DNA of 62,764 nt from a virus (taxonomy: Duplodnaviria; Heunggongvirae; Uroviricota; Caudoviricetes): the IMG/VR virus record IMGVR_UViG_2516143071_000006; one strand, written 5' to 3'. The translations under genes were made by a program, and so were the position numbers. The notes beneath the pieces were generated by a model, which was not told where the DNA came from, searched no databases, and worked only from the letters and a program-made list of their open reading frames with translations. Below, one piece after another: positions 39,171 through 59,279 of this stretch; the stretch's first letter is position 1, and every line of letters begins with the position of its first letter.

Positions 39171-41081
39171 TTATGCGGCTGCTCCAGCTTTGTTTGCTTT
39201 AACTTCCACCGTATCAATAAGTACAGGGTAGGTTTCTGCACTACCTGTAATATCCGTAATGACAAACCTGTTGAGTCCATTAGCAGTATTGGCCCATTTC
39301 ACCAGGTCAAACGCCTGTCCATCCACACCATCGAGCACCGGAGTAACATTAATGCTGTTACTGCCCTTAAATTTAAATGCAAGCGTATGCCAGTCATGGT
39401 CGAATGCGCCAAACGTGCCAAGTTCTTTTTGTTGATTAACTGTATGATGGTATGCAACATTAATACTGGCTTTATCTGTCTGGACAAAGAAAGAACTCAG
39501 ATGGCCTTCACCACCCTCACCCGGCCATTCCGCTATTCGCCAGTACAAACCAAAGGCATACTTGTTTCTGGTTGTCTCAAGATTGACGTTTTCGGGGATT
39601 TTAAACCGGACAGCAATTTCCCCGCCTTTTTCCAGTAAAAGTTTTGCCTTGTCTGCAGCAATATCACAGTACATTGACCAGGATTTCGCGCTGTTATTTT
39701 TCTCAATTCGCAGAGCTTTATTGCCGCTGTCATCAACCAGTGTGCGCCTGCCATACACACCGTCCCAGCCATAGGGTTTCAGCTGATTGTCTGTAGCTTT
39801 TTTGGCATCGTAAAAAATTACAGACTCTGAGGTGGTAACCGGTCTGTCTGGAACAACCACCCCGGCAGTACCATTAACAAACGCAGAAGACTTACCCGCG
39901 CAGCTCAGAATCGCAGTTGCCAGACGGTCGGAAATAATCCCACGGCGAGCCCATGAACTGAAATGGCTCGCCCTGTCCTGTGACGTCCAGGTGGCTGAGC
40001 TGTCACGCCATTTCGAACCGTAATAACCGATACCCGGAATGTCCGGGTCTTCTTCCGGTTTGTTCGTCGGCACATTCACCCCGTTCTCATCGGTCATGAA
40101 CGGTACGAAATGGATATTCTTTTCCGTTTTATTTTTATAGCTGCCGTACACCGTCTGGTACGTGGATTCGTTCTTCTGCTTCCAGAAATACGTCGTGTCC
40201 CCGCATATCCAGGGAACACCGCCAGCAGAGCCACCGACGCACTGGCCTGCCATATCCGCCAGGTCTGCACGGAATTTATCAACCAGCGCACCAAACTGTG
40301 CGGCATGATTTGCCGGCGTACCGCCAAAATCAAATTCCCCCTGCATCCACACCACGGCAAACAGCACATTTTTCGGGTTCTTCTCCAGTGCCGCTTTTGT
40401 TCGACCGATAAGGTCCTTATACAGCGGCTTGTCCACACCCCAGCGGGTTGAATTCTCCGAGGCGCCACTCGCGTCACTGTATGTGCCATCAGCTCCGGTG
40501 GTGAACGCTGAACCACCACGACAGCACGGAACCAGCAGAATGCCCGCATTCGCCGGTATAAACGGCAGCAGTTTTTTGGCGATATGCAGCCCCTGCCCCA
40601 CGGTTCCGTACTGCCCCTTTGACAGGTCCGCTTTCGGATGGTTAAGACGGCTCATGTCCTGCACATCATGCAGACAATGGTCCGCCGGAATGATGTCGTT
40701 ATATTTGCATGCTGCACCGCCCGGTGTCACCGTACTGCGACGCGCTAACTGTTTAATACGTGGATCAGGGCTGTCGAATGTATCCGGTAATGGCAGTCCC
40801 TCACCGTATGACATACCATTGGACTGACCAGCAAGCGCGATCACATAGTAATATTCTGGCGCAACAGAAGGCGCTGAGGTCGTCGGACGGTTGCCTGGCT
40901 CCTCTGGTGATGAGATGCTCCCCTCACTCACAACTGGCTGGATGAACTCCGCACCATAACCAGCTGTCGAAATCAGCGCACTACCATAAGGCTGCCACCC
41001 TTCCTTCAGTTTTTGAGTTATTCGTTTCGCAAGGTCTGACGGCGACGCCGCCCTGACAACATCATAGTGTTTAAATGCCAT
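39171..41081 (-). CDS. nanS: NanS-p-type sialate O-acetylesterase (DUF1737 N-terminal domain plus SGNH esterase)
   Basis: MAFKHYDVVRAASPSDLAKRITQKLKEGWQPYG N-terminus and GQSNGMSYG esterase motif; located between Q and S. Confidence 0.8.
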   Translation of the reverse strand: MAFKHYDVVRAASPSDLAKRITQKLKEGWQPYGSALISTAGYGAEFIQPVVSEGSISSPEEPGNRPTTSAPSVAPEYYYVIALAGQSNGMSYGEGLPLPDTFDSPDPRIKQLARRSTVTPGGAACKYNDIIPADHCLHDVQDMSRLNHPKADLSKGQYGTVGQGLHIAKKLLPFIPANAGILLVPCCRGGSAFTTGADGTYSDASGASENSTRWGVDKPLYKDLIGRTKAALEKNPKNVLFAVVWMQGEFDFGGTPANHAAQFGALVDKFRADLADMAGQCVGGSAGGVPWICGDTTYFWKQKNESTYQTVYGSYKNKTEKNIHFVPFMTDENGVNVPTNKPEEDPDIPGIGYYGSKWRDSSATWTSQDRASHFSSWARRGIISDRLATAILSCAGKSSAFVNGTAGVVVPDRPVTTSESVIFYDAKKATDNQLKPYGWDGVYGRRTLVDDSGNKALRIEKNNSAKSWSMYCDIAADKAKLLLEKGGEIAVRFKIPENVNLETTRNKYAFGLYWRIAEWPGEGGEGHLSSFFVQTDKASINVAYHHTVNQQKELGTFGAFDHDWHTLAFKFKGSNSINVTPVLDGVDGQAFDLVKWANTANGLNRFVITDITGSAETYPVLIDTVEVKANKAGAAA

Positions 41082-41274: not shown

Positions 41275-41304
41275 GCCCGCGTCTCCCAGCGCGGGCTTTT
41301 TTGT
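41275..41304 (+). terminator. Hairpin plus T-run in the Q-nanS gap, followed by a second hairpin at 41315..41332
   Basis: cccgcgtctcccagcgcggg then cttttttg. Confidence 0.35.
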
Positions 41305-41565
41305 CCATAAGAAAGCCCCTCCGGAGAGGGGCTGGAGAGTGGCGCTATGTGCCATTGCATGGTGCCGGGTGCCTCCCGGTGAGTTCAGCCCGGTGCCACT
41401 AAACCCGCGTCATTCTCGTTTTGATAATCAGAGATTATACCGTCACCAGTCGCCCCTCCGCTCAGGGGGATTCACCATGCAGTTTTTTCTAACAAATTCT
41501 CATCCGGGCAGACAACATTCAACTGACTTAATTGTGAGGTATGTAACATTCCCGTTGAACGGATA

Positions 41566-44465: not shown

Positions 44466-44809
44466 AATGACGCCCTCGAGTGGTTTCTAAACTATCACCA
44501 CCGTCAGGTTCCTAATCATCGGGTGGCGAGACGTACAGGGTTAGGAACTACCGGGAAACCAACCGGCGAGCTTTTCAGCTCCCCTATACGCCCCACCATA
44601 ATTCAGATGTGCGTGTGCATACGACAATAAAAAACACGCTCGCGGCGTGTCTCTGTCGCGGTTTCTATCCGGGGTTCCTAATCCCGACGCCAGATTTTGC
44701 TGGCGTGCGATGAATATAATCCCGGATACGCGACGTTGTCAAACTGATGGCATTGCAGATCCCTACGCAATGTAACACTATGTGTTATACATTAATAACG
44801 GAACAAAAA

Positions 44810-46432: not shown

Positions 46433-46588
46433 TTACTCCTCAGGTTCGTAAGCTGTGAAGACAGCAACCTCCGTCTGACCGGTTCGGATTCGTACCTCGC
46501 AGAGGTCTTTCCTCGTTACCAGTGCCGTCACTACGACGGTAATACAGATGACGATCAGGGCGACTAACATCGCCTTTTGCTGCTTCAT
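46433..46588 (-). CDS. hok: Hok-family type I toxin (HokD/RelF-like); an in-frame upstream extension to 46645 is mok-like
   Basis: MKQQKAMLVALIVICITVVVTALVTRKDLCEVRIRTGQTEVAVFTAYEPEE is near-identical to HokD/RelF as remembered. Confidence 0.8.
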   Translation of the reverse strand: MKQQKAMLVALIVICITVVVTALVTRKDLCEVRIRTGQTEVAVFTAYEPEE

Positions 46589-46833
46589 AGCCTGCTTCTC
46601 CTTGCCTTTCGGCGCGTAAGAGGCTAACCTACATGTGTCTAGCATGAAATTGGCCTCAGATTAATGTTAGGCGTCTTGCAGGACGCGTAATGTTAACTGG
46701 GGTTTTTCTCTGTCTGCCTTACGGTGGCATGCCCGAGGCAGACAGCCTCAAGCACCCGCAGCAATTCTACTTAACTCTCGCTTTACCGCAAACCGTTTTT
46801 ACCCGATATGGGAATTCCCATATCGTAATGAAT

Positions 46834-51717: not shown

Positions 51718-52434
<717 letters not shown>

Positions 52435-52480
52435 CAAGAAGCACAGGTATTAACAATAGCTTTCATGGTGATACGAATCA

Positions 52481-53023
52481 GTGGCTAAAAAAGGCGACTT
52501 TAAGCCTACCCAGAAAGAGGTTGACCAAGCTATTACTCGCTTGAAAAAAGTAACTTTTAGCGGAGTTACATGGACCGGAAGTGAGGGACGAACCCCAATC
52601 TGGTTTAAATTGGATCTCAAAGCTTTTGATGAAATTGGCAACCCAATCACAGGCATAAGATTTATGCTTCACTGGCGTCCTCCTATCGTTGAAGGGGTGG
52701 ATATAGTGAAGATTTCATTTGTGATGTTTCTTCATGACAGGCGCATTTACGCGCTTGATCCGTACCCTGCGGATAACAAGCCACACCGTAATAAATCTAT
52801 AGTGAACCATCCAGATTTTGTTGAGGTGGCTCGAGGTCCTCACTATCACATGTACTTCGAATCAGCTGGGGAAGAAATTGCACTTAAGCTTGAAACGAAC
52901 ATCAAGCCAGATGATTTTTTTGGCTACTGGAATTATTTTTGCGAGGCGCTTAATATCATATATGAAGGCAGCCCACCTTTACCTAATCAAGATAAATCAG
53001 GTCAGTTATCATGGGAAATGTAA
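52481..53023 (+). CDS. Unknown protein, first gene of a two-gene module in the rexA/rexB position
   Basis: 180-aa ORF 46 nt downstream of cI, co-oriented; AT-rich; no recognisable family. Confidence 0.6.
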   Translation: MAKKGDFKPTQKEVDQAITRLKKVTFSGVTWTGSEGRTPIWFKLDLKAFDEIGNPITGIRFMLHWRPPIVEGVDIVKISFVMFLHDRRIYALDPYPADNKPHRNKSIVNHPDFVEVARGPHYHMYFESAGEEIALKLETNIKPDDFFGYWNYFCEALNIIYEGSPPLPNQDKSGQLSWEM

Positions 53024-53787
53024 CGTGTTCAACAGTCATATCTAAGCTCGGGTTTGAATGCCACCCAATGAGCGACACGTTGCTGCGCGTTATTAGTCCA
53101 TTCACATACTACGATGATTGTGAGCAGATAAGTGTATTCGTTCAAGAGATGAGTGGTCAGTATAGGGTTACAGACTACTGCGATACATTGATGAATATTG
53201 AATCACGCGGCATCCACCTGACTAAAAAGAAAATTGATCTGATCAGGTCATCACTCGCTTCGCAAGGAATTTCATTAAATGACTCTGGAGAGATATCTGC
53301 GTGGGCAGATGAGTCGTCCGTTGGACAGGTAACTGCAAATGTTATTCGTGGTGGGATTCTTGCATCCGCCCAAACTGCTGATTGGTATGCTGAGGTCAAA
53401 GACGATAAGTTCGAAAAATGTGTAATCAGTTACTTAAAATCAGCAGGGCTTGGGAAGCGACTAGCCTTAAAGGAAAAAGTGAAAGGTATTAGTGGGCATA
53501 ACATTACTGTTCCGTTAACGCTAAGGAATGAGTCTCGACTAATACCACCAAAACGCGGGTTTACGGTAAGCCTTGCCAGCAGTAAGGGATGGAATACTGC
53601 CCACTCAACAGTTGGGAAGATTGTTGACTTAAGTCAGGTCGTTCCTGACATAAACAATAGATTTGTAATAGTTGACAGCGATGGGTTAACACCTGAGCTA
53701 CAGCAACTATCACTACTATTTAATGATACCGCACGAGTGTTGCCATTCCATACCAGAGACTCTTGGATTGAGTCTCTGGTAGCCTAG
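53011..53787 (+). CDS. Unknown protein, second gene of the module in the rexA/rexB position
   Basis: 258-aa ORF overlapping the upstream gene by 13 nt; ends about 180 bp before OL/pL. Confidence 0.6.
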   Translation: MGNVTCSTVISKLGFECHPMSDTLLRVISPFTYYDDCEQISVFVQEMSGQYRVTDYCDTLMNIESRGIHLTKKKIDLIRSSLASQGISLNDSGEISAWADESSVGQVTANVIRGGILASAQTADWYAEVKDDKFEKCVISYLKSAGLGKRLALKEKVKGISGHNITVPLTLRNESRLIPPKRGFTVSLASSKGWNTAHSTVGKIVDLSQVVPDINNRFVIVDSDGLTPELQQLSLLFNDTARVLPFHTRDSWIESLVA

Positions 53788-53970
53788 AAAAACCCGGCCT
53801 CAGCGCCGGGTTTTCTTTGCCTCACCCCCCCACCTAAAGACACATAACCAAATGTATTTATTGAAAAATAAATAGATACAACTCACTAAACATCGCAATT
53901 CAGATCTCTCGATCACCTCCCAAGCCACTCAACCCTGCAAAAAATAAATCCATATAAAAAACATACAGAT

Positions 53971-54039
53971 AACCATCTGCGGTGATAAATTATCTCTGGC
54001 GGTGTTGACATAAATACCACTGGCGGTGATACTAAACAC
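53971..54039 (+). promoter_or_regulatory. OL operator with pL promoter, lambda-type (OL3, OL2, OL1; -35 TTGACA, -10 GATACT)
   Basis: accatctgcggtgataaattatctctggcggtgttgacataaataccactggcggtgatact matches lambda OL/pL as remembered. Confidence 0.85.
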
Positions 54040-54101
54040 ATCAGCAGGACGCACTACTCACCAGGGCGGTGAATATACAACGATTCAAATATGAATCTAC
54101 G

Positions 54102-54116
54102 GCGCTGACAAAGCGC
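54102..54116 (+). promoter_or_regulatory. nutL boxB candidate, P22-type
   Basis: gcgctgacaaagcgc stem-loop between pL and N. Confidence 0.45.
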
Positions 54117-54281
54117 AATAACCAAAGTGAACTTTGGGGTGTGGTGAAGGGTTCATGGACGGGAATATGTCGCACGTAAAGCGGCGGGGCCTGCGGGACT
54201 ATTGCCGAATTGAAGTAGGCCGAAACAGGTCGAAATGGGTCTCCCACCTACCACACCACCAAAGTTCATCAGGAGGTCTAT

Positions 54282-54665
54282 ATGACACGCAGAACTCAGT
54301 TCAAAGGCAATTCACGCTCTCATCGTCGTGAGCGTTTAAAGGCAAAGGCATTAGCTAACGGCGTGCTGGCCCGCGAAGAAGCAATAAGTTCAGAAGTATT
54401 ACACCGCCCTACTCTAAGCAGAGCGCAGATTCAGGCTAAAGGTACTCACGAAACGCCTGAGCGCATAGAAGACGCTAAGCCAATTAAGTTCATGGCACAG
54501 GACGTGATCTGGCAACAGAAAGAATACAGACGCAATCTGGAGCGAGCAGCCATTGTGTACGCGAATGAGTTTGGACATAAGCAACCAGAAACTGGTGTAT
54601 GTCTTCCAAACGTAGCCATTTACGCGGCAGGCTACCGGAAATCAAAACAACTGACGGCGAGGTGA
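54282..54665 (+). CDS. N: N antiterminator (P22 gene 24-like, not lambda N)
   Basis: Arg-rich motif NSRSHRRERLKAKA; C-terminus VAIYAAGYRKSKQLTAR; first gene after pL. Confidence 0.75.
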   Translation: MTRRTQFKGNSRSHRRERLKAKALANGVLAREEAISSEVLHRPTLSRAQIQAKGTHETPERIEDAKPIKFMAQDVIWQQKEYRRNLERAAIVYANEFGHKQPETGVCLPNVAIYAAGYRKSKQLTAR

Positions 54666-55382
54666 TTGATGACCACGCCTTCAGTTTTGCCGCAAAAATT
54701 ATGGCGTCCGCTTGCAGAGATTAAAAACTTCGTTGAAAAAATGCCTGATGGAGTTCGCCTTACGGAAGTTACTAAAAAAGTTAAGACATTTGCCGAACTG
54801 TCAGGAAAGGAGAGAAACCAGCTCATAGATTTTATCGATAAACGGGAAAGCATCATTGTATTTAAGGTCAGAAAAGAAGGTTCTGGTAACGGAGTAACCT
54901 TTTTCCGCCACAAAAAATATGGATATCCCAAACGGGAAGGAAACGTCACAATCATTAAGGACCTTCAATCAAAATTATGTACCAGATGCGGGCAGACAAA
55001 ATCAGTCAATGATTTTTATTCAGATGCCAGCAAGCGTGACGGGAGAGCCATTTATTGCAAGAAGTGCGAATCTGCAATGAAACGCTCACGCAGAGAATGC
55101 AACAAATTAATTCTGCAACAACAGGAACCTGAAATGAATAACCTCAAAGCAGTTTCACCTTCACCAGAAATACTCAGAAAACAGGCTGAAGAATTGCTGA
55201 AAGCCGCCGAAATTGCGGAGAAAAAACGCCAGGAAGATGATGCATTCAACAAAAAACTTGCGCCCTTAAAACTTGAAATTCTTCAGGCCGCCGGAAAAAT
55301 GCAGCTTAAACTGGACGAATTCATCGACTGTATGGATGAAATGAATAAAGCAGTTCAGAAGCTTAAAGAGCTGACCGCCTGA
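54666..55382 (+). CDS. Hypothetical protein with a zinc-ribbon motif and coiled-coil C-terminus
   Basis: 238-aa AT-rich ORF directly after N; CTRCG...CKKCES. Confidence 0.5.
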   Translation: MMTTPSVLPQKLWRPLAEIKNFVEKMPDGVRLTEVTKKVKTFAELSGKERNQLIDFIDKRESIIVFKVRKEGSGNGVTFFRHKKYGYPKREGNVTIIKDLQSKLCTRCGQTKSVNDFYSDASKRDGRAIYCKKCESAMKRSRRECNKLILQQQEPEMNNLKAVSPSPEILRKQAEELLKAAEIAEKKRQEDDAFNKKLAPLKLEILQAAGKMQLKLDEFIDCMDEMNKAVQKLKELTA

Positions 55383-55413
55383 TATTAATAAATTGCAACT
55401 ACCGGAGTTAACT

Positions 55414-55773
55414 ATGAATGAAACAGAACTGAAGCACATTATCGCCCTGCTTCTGGAAGATGCCAGACAGGTTTATCGACTTAGCCCAAATTCCGCAACG
55501 CTGACACGCATCCAGATGGCAGAAAAAGCACTGAAACAGGACAATGGAAACGGCATATCCAAATTTAGCGCCGCCAGTGAAAATGAAGTAATAGAAATAA
55601 ACAGCAATATCAGCGACAGTTGCGTCGCTTACAGCCACCAAATAATTCGTGTAAGTGCAAGAATAATGGAAGTGATGGCAAGTGAGCTTGAAAAGAACAA
55701 CATCAAACCCACTGATTGTTGTTTAAGAACCGTAATGAACGTTATTTATTACTCGATGTTCCGAAGTCGCTAA
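55414..55773 (+). CDS. Hypothetical protein
   Basis: ORF 55393..55773 with a probable ATG at 55414. Confidence 0.4.
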   Translation: MNETELKHIIALLLEDARQVYRLSPNSATLTRIQMAEKALKQDNGNGISKFSAASENEVIEINSNISDSCVAYSHQIIRVSARIMEVMASELEKNNIKPTDCCLRTVMNVIYYSMFRSR

Positions 55774-55951
55774 CAGCGTCGAGTTTTTCATCAAAAAATG
55801 ATTCAAATGCATCGTAAAATACGGCAATAGCACCGCCCTTATCTACCGCGGCAGGAACTGCCTTTTGAGGTATATCTTTCTCCCTGAATTGTGTGTTGTA
55901 GGTATCGACAGCCAGCCGCATCAGAAACATCACTTTTTCTTCTTGTGTCAT
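55742..55951 (-). CDS. Hypothetical small protein, antisense to the pL operon
   Basis: 69-aa ORF convergent with the upstream gene. Confidence 0.3.
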   Translation of the reverse strand: MTQEEKVMFLMRLAVDTYNTQFREKDIPQKAVPAAVDKGGAIAVFYDAFESFFDEKLDAVSDFGTSSNK

Positions 55952-56190
55952 AAATTCACTCTCCTTACGGGGTTTGTAGTTGAGGAGTTCTCCACGGGTG
56001 AGGTGGAGATCGTGCGCCGGACACGGGTGAGTTCCGGCACTCTCAGTTTACTGAACAGACATTACCCTGAAAGCCAGGGTACAACACGAAAGTGCACGGC
56101 GAAGACTCTTACCCATTGAAGGCTTGTCGTTAGATTTCTTCGACCGTGCGCTTCCGGTTGTGAATAACAACATTGCTGTGTGTAGCCCTT

Positions 56191-56232
56191 GGCGGACATC
56201 GGTTTGCCGATTGCTGATGTCCGCCCTTTTTA
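56191..56232 (+). terminator. Intrinsic terminator inside the pL operon (tL-like)
   Basis: ggcggacatc...gatgtccgcc stem followed by ctttttaaag. Confidence 0.5.
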
Positions 56233-56389
56233 AAGTGAATTTTGTGATGCGGTGAATGCGGCTATGCGCACGCGGAACAGTTAAACCGACAGGATGTCAC
56301 GGAAAGTCATCGTCCCCTGACCCGGCGTTAGTTGTTAACTGGTTAACGTCACCCGGAGGCACCAGGCACCGCATCAACAAAGTTCATTT

Positions 56390-56629
56390 GTGAAAATGGA
56401 GATAATTATGATTGCTCATCACTTCGGAACTGATGAAATACCACGTCAGTGCGTGACGCCTGGCGATTATGTTCTTCATGAAGGTCGGACATATATCGCT
56501 TCAGCAAACAATATTGAAAAGAGAAAACTCTATATTCGTAACTTCACAACAAAAACATGCATTACCGACTGCATGATTAAAGTTTTCATCGGGCGCGATG
56601 GCTTACCCGTAAAAGCAGCGTCGTTGTGA
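56390..56629 (+). CDS. Hypothetical small protein
   Basis: 79-aa ORF; start may be the internal Met at 56408. Confidence 0.4.
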
Positions 56630-56712
56630 CGAGTAATAAAATACACCTTCCATATCTGTAACAGACAAGCCGAAATAAAACCGCATTAATTATCAATCAC
56701 GGAAAAATCAAA

Positions 56713-57099
56713 ATGAAAGAACTTGCGCAAAATGAAATATTTTCCAAAACCAGTCCTGATGCAATAAATGAACTCAAAGAAATTGCAGAACGCATCAGTA
56801 AAATATGCAAAGAATACAAAATCGACTTTGTATTTTCTTTTTCAGTGCTTACAGAAGTTGGAAATAACGAATATAAGGACAGTCGTTTTGTTTTATGTGG
56901 GTTAAATGGCAAAACACCAAGCCCATATATTCATGCTGCACGTGAAGTTGTCAGAAGCAACATTGGAGTACAACAAATCCATACACTTGCACAGGCTCTT
57001 GAGTTTGCAAGAGAAAATTCTGAGTGCGACTGCCCTGAATGCCAGCACGAAAAGGGAAAAACAACTCACAAAACAGCAAACCAGGCAACCTTCCACTGA
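56713..57099 (+). CDS. Hypothetical protein with a C-terminal Cys/His cluster
   Basis: 128 aa; ECDCPECQHEKGK. Confidence 0.45.
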   Translation: MKELAQNEIFSKTSPDAINELKEIAERISKICKEYKIDFVFSFSVLTEVGNNEYKDSRFVLCGLNGKTPSPYIHAAREVVRSNIGVQQIHTLAQALEFARENSECDCPECQHEKGKTTHKTANQATFH

Positions 57100-57206
57100 A
57101 ATAAAAATCCGGCAGCGCAGGCTACCGGATTTCTCCCTGCGTCACCGTATTCGGAGAAATCAGACAAAGGGCCGCTAATTCTAATCCAGCCAGAGGTTTA
57201 AATACA

Positions 57207-59279
57207 ATGAGCGCTGATAAACAGACTTTTGCACTACACTGCGAAGCAAAAAACGATAAAGTCAGAAAACGCCTTGGCATCAAAGGCGGTTTTTTCTGGA
57301 CCGAGGCCAGAAAACTTTCTGTCGCAGTTTCCCGCTGCATTGCAGCCATGGACGATGCAGGCTACGACGAGGATGATTTCAAAAAACCCGTTCGCGTAAA
57401 TTTCCCCGTCGTGAATGACCTTCCACCGGAAGGCGTGTTTGATACTGAATTCTGCAACCGCTATGAAAAAGGCGGTAACGATGGCATCACCATGATGGCT
57501 ATCCCCTTCGATGACAACATCAACGGTGAAGATGCCACAACTGCTGGCGATGACAACGATAACCTGGACGGAACTATTCCGGATGATGTGGAGAAAAGCG
57601 AATCCCCGGACAGCGACGATGACTGTTCTGAGTGTGAAATTCCCGTCGCCACTCTGAGCCTTACTCATCGCTTCCTTCACCTCTTCTTATTCAGCAAAGA
57701 TGAAGATGGAAAATACCGGCATCATGCCACACCAGAACAACGCAATAACGTGATCCGTATGGAGATGGACACAGAGGACAGTTACCTTCAGAGCCTGCTT
57801 ACTGCTGTGCGCGCCGCGCATCATGAACTGGATAAACTGACGAACTATCACCTTAGTCGCCTGGCTGAATCTGTAGGGAAAGCATTCCCCCACTCTGCAA
57901 ATCATCGCATCAGCCCGGCTGAATTCGACAAGTTCATTTCCACCTGGATGAAAACTGACTACCTTGATCAGGGCCTGCTGACAAAAGAATGGCAGAACGG
58001 AAATTATGTTTCAGGCATTACCCGTACGCCTTCCGGTGCTAACGCTGGCGGCGGAAATATTACCGATCGTGGTGAAGGATTCAAACATGATAAGACATCA
58101 CTCGCACGAGATGTAGCCACCGGCGTTCTGGCCCGTTCAATGGATGTGGATATTTATAACCTGCACCCAGCACACGCAAAACGCGTTGAAGAAATCGTGT
58201 CAGAGAATAAGCCGCCCTTTTCTGTTTTTCGCGACAAATTTATCGCCATGCCCGGTGGGCTGGATTATTCCCGCGCCATTGTGGTGGCTTCCGTGAAAGA
58301 AGCACCAATCGGCATTGAGGCCATCCCGGCACGCGTGACTGAATATCTCAACAAAGTGTTGACCGAAACCGATCACACTAACCCGGATCCGGAAATCGTG
58401 GAAATTGCCTGCGGTCGCTCATCAGCACCGATGCCGCAGCGCGGAACAGCAGAAGGAAAACATGGCGATGAAGAAAAGCAACAAGCATCGGACACAATGG
58501 CTAATGAACAGGCAGCGCCTGAATCAGTGGAAGAAATTCCAGTTAAACATAATGAGGACACGCAATCACTGGAAAATGTCTCATCTGTAGAAACGAAATA
58601 CCAGGAACTGAGGGAGGAACTCAATAAAGCCAGGGAAAACATCCCCCCAAAAAATCCAGTCGATGCCGACAAATTACTGGCTGCCTCGCGTGGAGAATTC
58701 GTTGAAGGCATCAGTAACCCTGCTGATCCGAAGTGGGTTAAGGGGATCCAGACTCGCGACACTGAGGACCAGAATCAGTCCAAAGTGGAACAAATTGCCC
58801 CAGAAGCGGGACAAAACAGCCCGGATACGCAACAAAACGGGCCAGAAGAGCAACAGCCAGGGCCAGTAATGCAACAGGAAGTGGAAAAGGTTTGCACCAC
58901 ATGCAGTCAGAACGGTGGCGGCCATTGCCCTGACTGTGGTCCAGTAATGGGAGATGAAACTTACGCTGAAACTTTTGGAGAAAATGACGCCGCTGATGGA
59001 GAAGACTCAGCACAAACTGAGGAGAAGATCATTCAGGAAAACGCTGTTGATGCCGCTCAGGAGGGCGAAACCGTTGTTCAGAACGAGCCAGGCAGTGATA
59101 CGTCCGGCGATGACGCCAATTCTGAGCCAGTAACTCTCGACTGGAAAAGACAGCTCGTGATTGCCGCCGTCTATGGTTTGTGCGCCAACCCCGCATGTAT
59201 AGCCACAGCGCCAGCAATCCCTGATATCGCCATCATGATTGCCAACAGGCTTGAAAATTTCGGAGGTGATAAATCATGA
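57207..59279 (+). CDS. Large acidic hypothetical protein (690 aa) immediately upstream of gam
   Basis: Long ORF with Asp/Glu-rich tracts and a [16 protein letters not shown] motif; stop overlaps the gam start (ATGA). Confidence 0.6.

Follow-up and report, generated by a model that had tools for sequence, protein, structure and literature searches.

The block at positions 54,666 to 57,099 of the window (the whole 62,764-nt stretch of DNA that was analysed) belongs to a lambdoid prophage of the Stx-phage kind and forms the N-distal accessory part of its early-left (pL) operon. Five genes and a structured noncoding module are combined in it as a mosaic. The explanation that accounts best for this arrangement, and which we consider very probable, is that a pL accessory block carries a homologue of the K-12 small RNA KilS, whose terminator and following leader control the division inhibitor gene kil. 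What the analysis demonstrates is homology, conservation, RNA structure and family membership. The block is mostly ordinary: kil and the copy of KilS are of already-known kinds, and they are accompanied by four conserved small genes. The exception is a tentative resemblance of KilS to the host sRNA RprA.

The prophage and its pL accessory genes

The lambdoid prophage in the window belongs to E. coli O104:H4, and its sequence runs in the direction of pL transcription. Sequence comparison gave 100% identity between this region and E. coli O104:H4 chromosomes, and 92–98% identity to Stx-type phages that have their genes in the same order; the same block is present in related Stx-type phages (Stx1c, Shigella Stx). 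On the plus strand, N is followed by ORF237, ORF119, the minus-strand ORF69, a spacer of ~190 nt, and KilS with its terminator. The second half consists of a leader of ~175 nt, kil, ORF128, an ORF resembling the N-terminus of RecE, gam and bet. With N on one side and gam/bet on the other, the block indeed lies where an initial annotation had placed it, in the accessory part of the pL operon. The five ORFs and the hairpin described there are real and conserved, each at, or a few bases from, the position given, and all five ORFs are full-length matches to phage protein families (PHROG profiles). The reported AT-richness is a property of the ORFs (GC 0.38–0.42 vs 0.50 for the whole window) but not of the 456 noncoding nucleotides between them (GC 0.51).

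The first gene after N, ORF237 (54666/54669..55382, plus strand, 237 aa), starts with an ATG that is preceded by a GAGG ribosome-binding site and lies three bases downstream of the N stop codon (TGA). The protein belongs to phrog_2539 (E 7e-131). Its 68 homologues are all from Enterobacterales, and two of them are fused to an AlpA HTH domain. The AlphaFold model (pLDDT 82), with strands across residues 94–131, predicts a winged helix at the N-terminus, a zinc ribbon (CxxC...CxxC) as an insert and, at the C-terminus, a long coiled-coil helix. The zinc ribbon had been recognized from the sequence before, and is borne out by two CxxC pairs, C105/C108 and C131/C134, in a predicted beta-rich segment (238-aa numbering from TTG 54666; residue numbers drop by one when counted from ATG 54669). 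This segment is missing from about half of the family. Profile matches of the ribbon to ribbon-bearing families range from E 1e-9 to 1e-6, including a weak similarity to a "Lar-like restriction alleviation protein" (phrog_5558, E 2.6e-9), with endonuclease VII and HNH ribbons scoring about equally well. ORF237 probably binds nucleic acids. In a related prophage (L009), a Ral-tagged gene adjoins the ORF237 homologue, which indicates that ORF237 has not replaced Ral.

ORF119 (55393/55414..55773, plus strand, 119 aa from ATG) matches phrog_2982 (E 1e-79), and the profile match begins at ATG 55414, which is residue 8 of the 126-aa reading. The protein consists of a conserved N-terminal module of ~42 aa and a lineage-specific C-terminus: most of the 33 representatives found in an exhaustive search share residues 1 to ~45 only and differ in their C-termini. 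Constant N-termini combined with variable C-termini are a pattern known from phage–host conflict proteins. ORF119 found no match in Pfam or PDB. ORF128 (56713..57099, plus strand, 128 aa) occupies the position of racC in Rac, shows no similarity to RacC and belongs to phrog_2016 (E 2e-78). All of its 26 homologues come from E. coli wherever an organism is named. The Cys/His cluster attributed to this protein holds in part, since C107 and C110 of the C-terminal CxxC motif are invariant while C105 and H112 vary. The structural model of ORF128 is weak (pLDDT 71, five models disagree), and its structure matches are generic helical bundles only. PDB sequence searches with ORF237, ORF119, ORF69 and ORF128 returned nothing useful, and none of these four proteins matched a PADLOC or NCBIfam model. 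The only weak PADLOC matches in the window are two ORFs in the rex slot, outside the block.

ORF69 (55742..55951, minus strand, 69 aa) is convergent to the other genes, shares 32 nt with the 3' end of ORF119, and has the ribosome-binding site AAGGAGAG seven bases before its ATG. Two observations could suggest that this frame is noncoding and that its conservation reflects the antisense strand of the pL-operon RNA or DNA signals: it is unannotated in phage records such as PhiR5_2 and phiSTEC1589, and its first 15 codons lie inside a block that is almost invariant in nucleotides. We regard this reading as very unlikely, because the initially proposed 69-aa ORF is a full-length match to phrog_2605 (E 1.5e-45), and because homologues with 59% and 46–49% identity, in kil-type and dicB-type prophages alike, retain frame, start, ribosome-binding site, length (63–69 aa) and the position opposite Kil or DicB. 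Furthermore, other loci contain different genes with ribosome-binding sites that start at the same point. Across ~130 related loci, roughly a dozen unrelated small genes fill this antisense slot, as expected of a cargo slot; in K-12 Rac it is sieB that sits there, on the strand opposite kilR. ORF69 is best interpreted as cargo of this hypervariable antisense slot, with possible expression from the prophage. Unlike SieB, which is a membrane protein, ORF69 is acidic (pI 4.6) and contains no transmembrane or hydrophobic segment (the top 19-residue window has a Kyte–Doolittle mean of 0.99), so that it cannot work like the RefSeq-annotated SieB.

These properties also bear on the idea that the block serves anti-restriction or superinfection exclusion, as a functional counterpart of lambda ral and sieB. 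The location between N and the recombination genes fits this idea: the block takes the same part of the early-left operon as the ral/sieB region of lambda and Rac, and ORF69 shares slot and antisense cargo orientation with Rac sieB. The hypervariable, cargo-like nature of this slot, the weak Lar-like match of the ORF237 ribbon and the conflict-protein pattern of ORF119 point in the same direction. However, in Pfam, PHROGs and NCBIfam none of the five ORFs resembles Ral (PF11058) or SieB by sequence or profile, and none matches an anti-phage defence model in PADLOC 2.0. One of the ORFs is kil, the ORF237 ribbon is optional in its family and fits endonuclease VII and HNH ribbons about as well, ORF69 lacks a membrane segment, and the Ral-tagged gene of L009 stands next to an ORF237 homologue. 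Taken as a description of the whole block, a ral/sieB equivalent is thus quite unlikely. The antisense slot beside KilS nevertheless provides a defined place to seek new exclusion or defence genes.

The noncoding module upstream of kil

The third of the four plus-strand ORFs, which the initial annotation had set in a typical location for anti-restriction or exclusion genes, is kil (56390/56408..56629, plus strand, 73 aa from ATG), an inhibitor of host division and elongation rather than a gene of either kind. The protein scores 154.5 bits against the NCBIfam model NF008465 "FtsZ inhibitor protein" (cut-off 92) and matches the Kil profile phrog_294 (E 1e-37). It is identical to K-12 KilR in 66 of 73 residues (90%) without a gap, with differences in the last residues (AASL vs AESW). 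RefSeq annotates the ORF at 56408–56629 as kil, and Kil homologues in related loci carry the tag PF27398:KilR. Members of the KilR family inhibit FtsZ-dependent division, and KilR from the Rac prophage of K-12 inhibits both FtsZ and MreB (PMC12482147, PMC5793797). Expression of K-12 KilR causes filamentation that is relieved by extra FtsZ, and kilR in Rac is repressed by Rho and NusG (PMC12482147). One "accessory ORF" is hence identified as a toxic division and elongation inhibitor.

The sequence preceding kil contains a homologue of the K-12 sRNA KilS (b4833), which is annotated as the ncRNA kilS upstream of kilR in the K-12 RefSeq record. This homologue (56142..56232, plus strand, ~90 nt) is a relative of DicF and comprises a 5' hairpin, a single-stranded seed (AAUAACAACAUUGCUGUGUGUAG) and a terminator. 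The window aligns to K-12 kilS over the -10 region, the body, the seed and the terminator, and the match to Rac spans 56146–56643 at 84–86% DNA identity, in the same position and on the same strand upstream of kilR. In K-12, KilS was predicted from Hfq RIL-seq, where it is present in chimeras, and was verified by northern blot as an RNA with its own transcription start (Bar et al. 2021, PMC8175672). The Rfam model of DicF (RF00039) scores 29.5 bits on KilS (E 7e-4; threshold 48), with most of the match in the terminator; the modules around the two RNAs are nevertheless clearly homologous.

The intrinsic terminator of KilS (56191..56231, plus strand) consists of a hairpin (56191–56225; 13-bp stem, 9-nt loop) and, downstream of it, C and UUUUU (56227–56231). 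Its folding energy of -23.9 kcal/mol (z = -5.7) was reached by none of 200 shuffled sequences, and related loci contain compensatory stem variants (GGCGG/CCGCC vs GGUGG/CCACC). This is the first strong terminator-like hairpin on the plus strand after N. A consensus scan of the plus strand listed no terminator-like site from 54666 to 56190, although the same scan, limited to loops of 3–8 nt, missed the hairpin at 56191 too. The strong hairpin reported in the initial annotation is therefore real, but it is not merely an "internal terminator": it is where the KilS copy, unannotated so far, ends at its 3' side. KilS itself has been described but little studied.

Among the KilS-type copies, the single-stranded seed is conserved. 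The 12-nt seed core UGCUGUGUGUAG is kept in 24 of 29 KilS-type copies (8 distinct seed variants), while the flanks vary. The order of sRNA, terminator, leader and division inhibitor is preserved in ~130 loci, and the seed class goes with the inhibitor: KilS-type seeds accompany Kil in 27 of 28 classifiable loci, and DicF-type seeds accompany DicB in 71 of 73.

Between the starts of ORF69 and KilS lies a conserved noncoding spacer (55952..56141, ~190 nt), which is common to kil-type and dicB-type prophages, as seen in a sequence alignment and in 91 distinct copies. The antisense gene probably has its promoter and 5' UTR here, and a -10-like element of KilS probably lies here as well. This hexamer (TAGATT, 56131–56136) stands at the position of TAAATT in Rac. 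By alignment, the putative KilS promoter in the window is weaker than the extended -10 promoter of Rac (TGnTAAATT), as it lacks the TGn extension and a good -35 element. The consensus scan listed no promoter in the spacer or upstream of KilS. Given these weak elements, KilS RNA may arise here solely by processing of pL transcripts. For DicF, the title of a paper cited in PMC5069750 likewise describes production by processing, with no need for a promoter of its own. Two spacer hairpins with a shared GGGUGAG loop were considered as protein-binding sites and rejected, because the loops vary among loci and the folds are not clearly better than those of shuffled sequences (z -1.1 and -2.1).

Downstream of the terminator comes a leader with STnc100/PasD-type structure (56233..56407, plus strand, ~175 nt), in which a closing helix surrounds three hairpins. 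This 20-bp helix (56234–56254 paired with 56367–56388) begins right after the U-tract and stops just before the ribosome-binding site of kil (GGAG). In 40 distinct leader copies, pairing is found in 99.3% of cells, compared to 30–45% with slid partners, although these copies come from close relatives and the same alignment served to derive the structure. Among the same closely related copies, three pairs are altered on both sides. Helix 1, the closing helix, varies by G–U/U–G pairs only, which points to a plus-strand RNA. The copy in the window contains a C–A mismatch in helix 5.

A covariance model built from the 40 leaders (R1) recognizes the true STnc100 copy of the window (41355–41481, minus strand) with 54.5 bits, E 8e-12 and many compensated pairs. 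In the opposite direction, the Rfam model of STnc100 (RF02076) scores the leader with 26.5 bits and E 0.003, below the threshold of 47. Like STnc100 and PasD, the kil leader has a long closing helix that encloses hairpins, including a conserved CACC(U/G)GGAGGCACC(A/C)GGCACC hairpin. By these matches the leader is homologous to STnc100, and it is also homologous to the N leader of the phage itself. STnc100 and PasD are located in the late region near Q and an esterase gene, and have been described as free-standing sRNAs (bioRxiv 10.64898/2026.05.13.724894). In contrast, the element upstream of kil has no terminator of its own and continues directly into the kil ribosome-binding site, and therefore acts as a 5' leader. 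Its closing helix is a presumed RNase III site, by analogy with related RNAs.

Proposed control of kil by termination and leader processing

These elements suggest how a lethal gene may be kept silent in the lysogen, by a terminator and then by a structured leader. In the repressed prophage, or whenever polymerase lacks N, transcripts from upstream or from the KilS promoter would stop at the terminator, so that the toxic Kil would not be made and the product would be the sRNA KilS. Upon induction, N-modified polymerase from pL would, by analogy, pass the terminator and transcribe the leader, kil and ORF128. RNase III could then cut the 20-bp leader helix, releasing the sRNA and trimming the kil mRNA. 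We infer this cleavage because the processing of DicF is reported to depend on RNase III, and because the N leader of lambda contains an RNase III site. Kil would then block FtsZ ring formation and, at higher levels, MreB.

The same region could also be explained without a functional sRNA, if the hairpin were only an operon-internal terminator of the tL type and the KilS-like sequence a remnant. The promoter elements, weaker than those of Rac and absent from the consensus scan, and the C–A mismatch in helix 5 of the leader would agree with such decay. We nevertheless judge it unlikely, since the single-stranded seed has been conserved between variable flanks, with the core UGCUGUGUGUAG in most KilS-type copies, and since the seed class tracks the downstream division inhibitor. 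In addition, the K-12 homologue is a detected RNA in Hfq RIL-seq chimeras (PMC8175672), and DicF, judging from the title cited above, also arises by processing and can do without a promoter of its own. A third possibility is that KilS and kil form a type I toxin–antitoxin pair, in which the sRNA silences the kil mRNA by pairing. The toxic gene lies directly downstream of the sRNA, and this linkage is tight across loci. Yet KilS is encoded upstream of kil on the same strand, and the duplex that the seed is predicted to form with the kil leader or start region (-22.8 kcal/mol) was equalled by 22% of shuffled seeds, albeit in a low-power test. KilS as an antitoxin of kil was consequently rejected as a candidate and appears very improbable.

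The KilS seed and a possible shuffling cassette

The KilS seed resembles that of RprA (RF00034), an sRNA of the core genome: GUGAAUAACAAC-AUUGCUGUGUGUAG in the window corresponds to GUGAA-ACAACGAAUUGCUGUGUGUAG in RprA, and K-12 KilS and RprA match at 25 of 26 positions with one gap. Outside the seed, 5' hairpins and terminator included, the two RNAs show no similarity. The Rfam model of RprA scores 29.7 bits on KilS (threshold 70), and the seed stretch alone aligns. When both strands of the whole window (125 kb) were searched with RprA, the observed score of 36 was not significant (best shuffle 38), so that the likeness is notable only as a comparison of two sRNA seeds. In the literature searched, KilS and RprA were nowhere connected. 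RprA uses its CCCCU part on rpoS, and this part is lacking in KilS. Activation of rpoS in the manner of RprA and action on ftsZ in the manner of DicF were both rejected, since pairing of the seed with either leader was no better than that of shuffled seeds; the duplex with the yncL leader did not exceed shuffled seeds either. This duplex test has low power, as full-length DicF and ftsZ, a known pair, failed to stand out too.

Both KilS and RprA are predicted to pair with CUACACACAGCAGUG in the 5' UTR of csgD. The conserved single-stranded stretch (A/C)A(U/C)UGCUGUGUGUAG of KilS would base-pair at the RprA site, which lies in the upstream portion of this UTR. A tentative interpretation, possible but somewhat doubtful, is that KilS mimics the RprA seed on csgD and that, more widely, the unit of sRNA, terminator, leader and inhibitor is a shuffling cassette. 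If the mimicry were true, Rac-type and Stx-phage-type prophages could repress curli and biofilm formation via KilS. Prophages of pathogenic E. coli would then act directly on the csgD biofilm switch, which would constitute a new link between lysogeny and biofilm. In the cassette, the seed may be swapped together with the inhibitor (KilS–Kil, DicF–DicB), and the kil leader, STnc100/PasD and the leader of the phage's N gene may all belong to a single family.

A related module is the dicF-dicB region of Qin (dicBF operon). Its spacer, its -10 region, the first ~25 nt of the RNA, the terminator (GGCGG...CCGCCCUUUUU) and the leader of ~170 nt are all homologous to the window, and a division inhibitor gene comes next. 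The dicB type differs from the window by an insertion of ~135 nt, by its seed and by the inhibitor, which is DicB instead of Kil. The seed of DicF acts on ftsZ, xylR and pykA. The kilS-kilR region of Rac (b4833, b1352) shares with the window the order of sRNA, terminator, leader and kil, and the seed core AUUGCUGUGUGUAG. Rac differs in its surroundings: the antisense slot contains sieB in place of ORF69, ydaE and racC follow kilR where the window has ORF128, and control is exerted by RacR, whereas the window, as read from its sequence, has cI/pL of the lambda type, with an N gene upstream.

The KilS–leader–kil unit

All five open reading frames (ORFs) that the initial annotation had placed directly downstream of N are present. 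Each is a full-length match to a phage protein family (E 1e-37 to 7e-131), and none of them is a chance ORF. Ribosome-binding sites, database annotation and the beginnings of the profile matches point to likely starts at 54669, 55414, 56408 and 56713 on the plus strand and at 55951 on the minus strand. The description of the region as AT-rich holds for the ORFs (GC 0.38–0.42 versus 0.50 for the window), but not for the 456 nt between the minus-strand ORF69 and kil (GC 0.51). The strong hairpin was also found as described: it occupies 56191–56225 with a 13-bp stem ahead of C and UUUUU, and its fold (−23.9 kcal/mol, z −5.7) was equalled by 0 of 200 shuffled sequences. Upstream of it, on the plus strand of 54666–56190, a consensus scan listed no terminator-like sites; the same scan overlooked the 56191–56225 hairpin, whose loop of 9 nt is longer than the scan allows.

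At its core the region carries a known unit, in which the KilS sRNA and its terminator are followed by a structured leader and kil. By sequence, the third plus-strand ORF (56408–56629) is kil. Its 73-aa product scores 154.5 bits against the NCBIfam model NF008465 "FtsZ inhibitor protein" (cut-off 92), is 90% identical to KilR of the cryptic prophage Rac in E. coli K-12, and carries the RefSeq name kil. Previous studies have shown that KilR disrupts the Z-ring and, at higher levels, MreB too, and that Rac KilR is held off by Rho and NusG (PMC12482147; PMC5793797).

According to megablast, nucleotides 56146–56643 are homologous to the Rac region upstream of and including kilR. At the corresponding Rac site, the K-12 RefSeq record contains a 98-nt ncRNA annotated as kilS (b4833). 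This sRNA was predicted from Hfq RIL-seq, detected by northern blot and assigned its own transcription start, with yncL listed as a target (Bar et al., PMC8175672). The window aligns to K-12 KilS across the −10 region, the short 5' hairpin, the single-stranded middle and the terminator, and by homology a putative KilS copy spans approximately 56142–56232. The −10-like hexamer reads TAGATT where Rac has TGnTAAATT, and any active promoter belonging to the window copy itself is therefore putative. There is no KilS family in Rfam; the KilS and leader region produces below-threshold matches to DicF (29.5 bits, E 7e-4), RprA (29.7 bits) and STnc100 (26.5 bits). The most likely logic of this arrangement is that kil would be kept silent by the terminator, and possibly also by Rho in the leader, until N-modified polymerase reads through.

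The structured leader and its conserved module

The consensus fold of 40 distinct leaders (56233–56407 in the window) has a closing helix of 20 bp, formed in the window by 56234–56254 with 56367–56388, which encloses three hairpins. In this alignment of close relatives, from which the structure was itself derived, 99.3% of the cells are paired, versus 30–45% with the partners slid by 1–3 columns, and at three pairs both partners have changed. The closing helix varies only from G-C to G-U or from U-A to U-G; such wobble-only changes are compatible with a plus-strand RNA only.

A covariance model of the leader also detects the window's true Rfam STnc100 copy (41355–41481, minus strand; 54.5 bits, E 8e-12) and, more weakly, the phage's own N leader (54119–54300, plus strand; 26.9 bits, E 7e-5). 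An equivalent long closing helix (AAGUGAACUUUGGGGUGUGGUG ... UACCACACCACCAAAGUUCAU) is present in the N leader and stops immediately ahead of the N ribosome-binding site. The N leader, the leader of kil and dicB, and STnc100 appear to be one family. [quoted passage not shown] By analogy with both, we infer that the closing helix of the kil leader may be an RNase III substrate. Elsewhere in the prophage, STnc100, isrK, C4 antisense RNA and sok score above the Rfam threshold (41303–41508, 44519–44706 and 46583–46757, all on the minus strand); this STnc100 copy lies directly upstream of a 636-aa ORF (39171–41081).

An alignment of the window with one kil-type prophage, one dicB-type prophage, K-12 Qin and two Rac copies delimits the module. 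Four parts are common to prophages with Kil and those with DicB as the division inhibitor: a spacer of 190 nt, the −10 region together with roughly the first 25 nt of the RNA, the terminator, and a leader of ~170 nt that extends to the start codon. In contrast, the dicB type contains an insertion of ~135 nt and a DicF seed, whereas the kil type contains a KilS seed. A pattern scan of IMG/VR found the leader in numerous additional loci, for a total of ~130. Seed class and downstream gene go together in this set: of 28 classifiable loci with a KilS-type seed, 27 have Kil downstream, and of 73 with a DicF-type seed, 71 have DicB. DicB also follows a third class of seed, CCAUGUUGAUU; the third sRNA seed class is also recorded as CCAUGUUGAUUACCUUUUGG. 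At L015, L042, L062, L072, L082, L097, L100 and other collected loci, the gene behind the leader is of a third kind, distinct from both kil and dicB; it reads AAGGUAGAGAAAAUGUUGAAUGUAGCUAU in the extracts that include its start. Terminator and leader of the E. coli type also occur with 85–87% identity in PP818812.1 (Actinobacillus phage vB_Apl-pPE4), a record that also contains kil, and in MT713136.1 (Aeromonas phage AP1). These copies, in records assigned to distant hosts, could reflect horizontal transfer or assembly contamination.

Resemblance of KilS to RprA

The single-stranded part of KilS (GUGAAUAACAACAUUGCUGUGUGUAG) resembles RprA (GUGAAACAACGAAUUGCUGUGUGUAG): K-12 KilS and RprA match at 25 of 26 positions with one gap. 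As a seed-to-seed comparison this sequence match is striking, but a scan of RprA against both strands of the whole window does not single it out. RprA reportedly binds csgD mRNA on both sides of the main hairpin in its 5' UTR (PMC4152358). The KilS seed is predicted to pair with CUACACACAGCAGUG at positions −99 to −82 of the csgD leader (−31.3 kcal/mol; 0 of 200 shuffled seeds as good), and the best predicted RprA–csgD duplex uses the same site. A 12-nt core, UGCUGUGUGUAG, is kept in 24 of 29 KilS-type copies, and in eight copies ACACUGCUG makes the csgD match fully Watson–Crick. Predicted duplexes of the KilS seed with rpoS, ftsZ, yncL and kil gave no signal, and no link between KilS and RprA was found in the literature searched. 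We hypothesize that KilS may act on csgD through its RprA-like seed.

Accessory genes and prophage setting

Beside the known unit, the block contains four conserved genes: ORF237 (54669–55382), ORF119 (55414–55773) and ORF128 (56713–57099) on the plus strand, and ORF69 (55742–55951) on the minus strand. The anti-restriction or exclusion function proposed for this region lacks direct support. None of the four matches PADLOC, Ral or SieB. The resemblance of ORF119 to many small proteins is limited to its first ~42 residues; their C-termini differ. ORF128 is restricted to E. coli and contains one invariant CxxC only; its predicted model is weak, and a fold search returned no informative match. 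Just past its stop codon lies a second plus-strand hairpin (57105–57132, AAUCCGGC...ACCGGAUU; folded as a 55-nt stretch, −17.2 kcal/mol, z −2.6). UCUCCC follows it in place of a U-tract, and the hairpin may act as a weak terminator or stabilise the RNA.

ORF69 (phrog_2605) encodes an acidic protein without a hydrophobic segment. Its homologues are 59% identical in kil-type prophages and 46–49% identical (63 aa) in dicB-type prophages. They always occupy the same position, on the strand opposite to the division inhibitor, and the N-terminus MTQEEKVMFLMRLAV is invariant among them. K-12 Qin lacks the gene, and K-12 Rac carries sieB in this slot. Among the collected loci, the same start point serves about a dozen unrelated small genes (48–106 aa). 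Of ten tested, seven fall into PHROG families without assigned function; Pfam gave no match. ORF69 is a genuine gene, and the slot it occupies is a hypervariable cargo slot.

The initial annotation had placed the block correctly on the phage map: 54666–57099 is part of a lambdoid prophage and is read along the early-left operon. Upstream are a repressor gene (51721–52434, 237 aa), whose product we take from the lambda sequence to be a lambda-type CI, a presumed lambda-type OL/pL operator/promoter (~53960–54035), recognised in the same way, and the N antiterminator gene (54282–54665; Pfam N_peptide, E 3.7e-14). The N protein (127 aa) is presumably of the 933W/H-19B type. Judged by these resemblances, the immunity region 51721–54665 would be a hybrid.

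Many E. coli O104:H4 chromosomes carry the 2434-nt block with 100% identity, and 60 of 5426 complete E. coli genomes contain it almost in full. PhiR5_2, phiSTEC1589-Stx1c, Shigella phage 75/02 Stx and POCJ13 contain it with 92–98% identity and identical gene order. At L009, a locus in a related prophage whose immunity region differs, the ORF237 homologue has a short gene with the Pfam tag Ral (PF11058; 5334–5431) just upstream of it, so the ORF237–ORF128 block moves as a unit behind different N/immunity alleles.

Downstream of the block, a 690-aa RecE N-terminal-like ORF (57207–59279, plus strand) directly precedes gam and bet. Its match to the exonuclease VIII (RecE) model is confined to the N-terminal 598 of 877 positions and scores below the cut-off; the missing C-terminal part is presumably where the nuclease domain would be expected. 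Two overlapping plus-strand ORFs (52481–53787) between the repressor gene and pL occupy what we take to be the position of rexA/rexB in lambda. These ORFs of 180 aa (DUF6978, phrog_2017) and 258 aa (DUF1828, phrog_1960) show weak PADLOC matches to the candidate defence pair PDC-M24A (E 3.8e-4) and PDC-M24B (E 5e-7); they probably form a defence pair that the prophage expresses.
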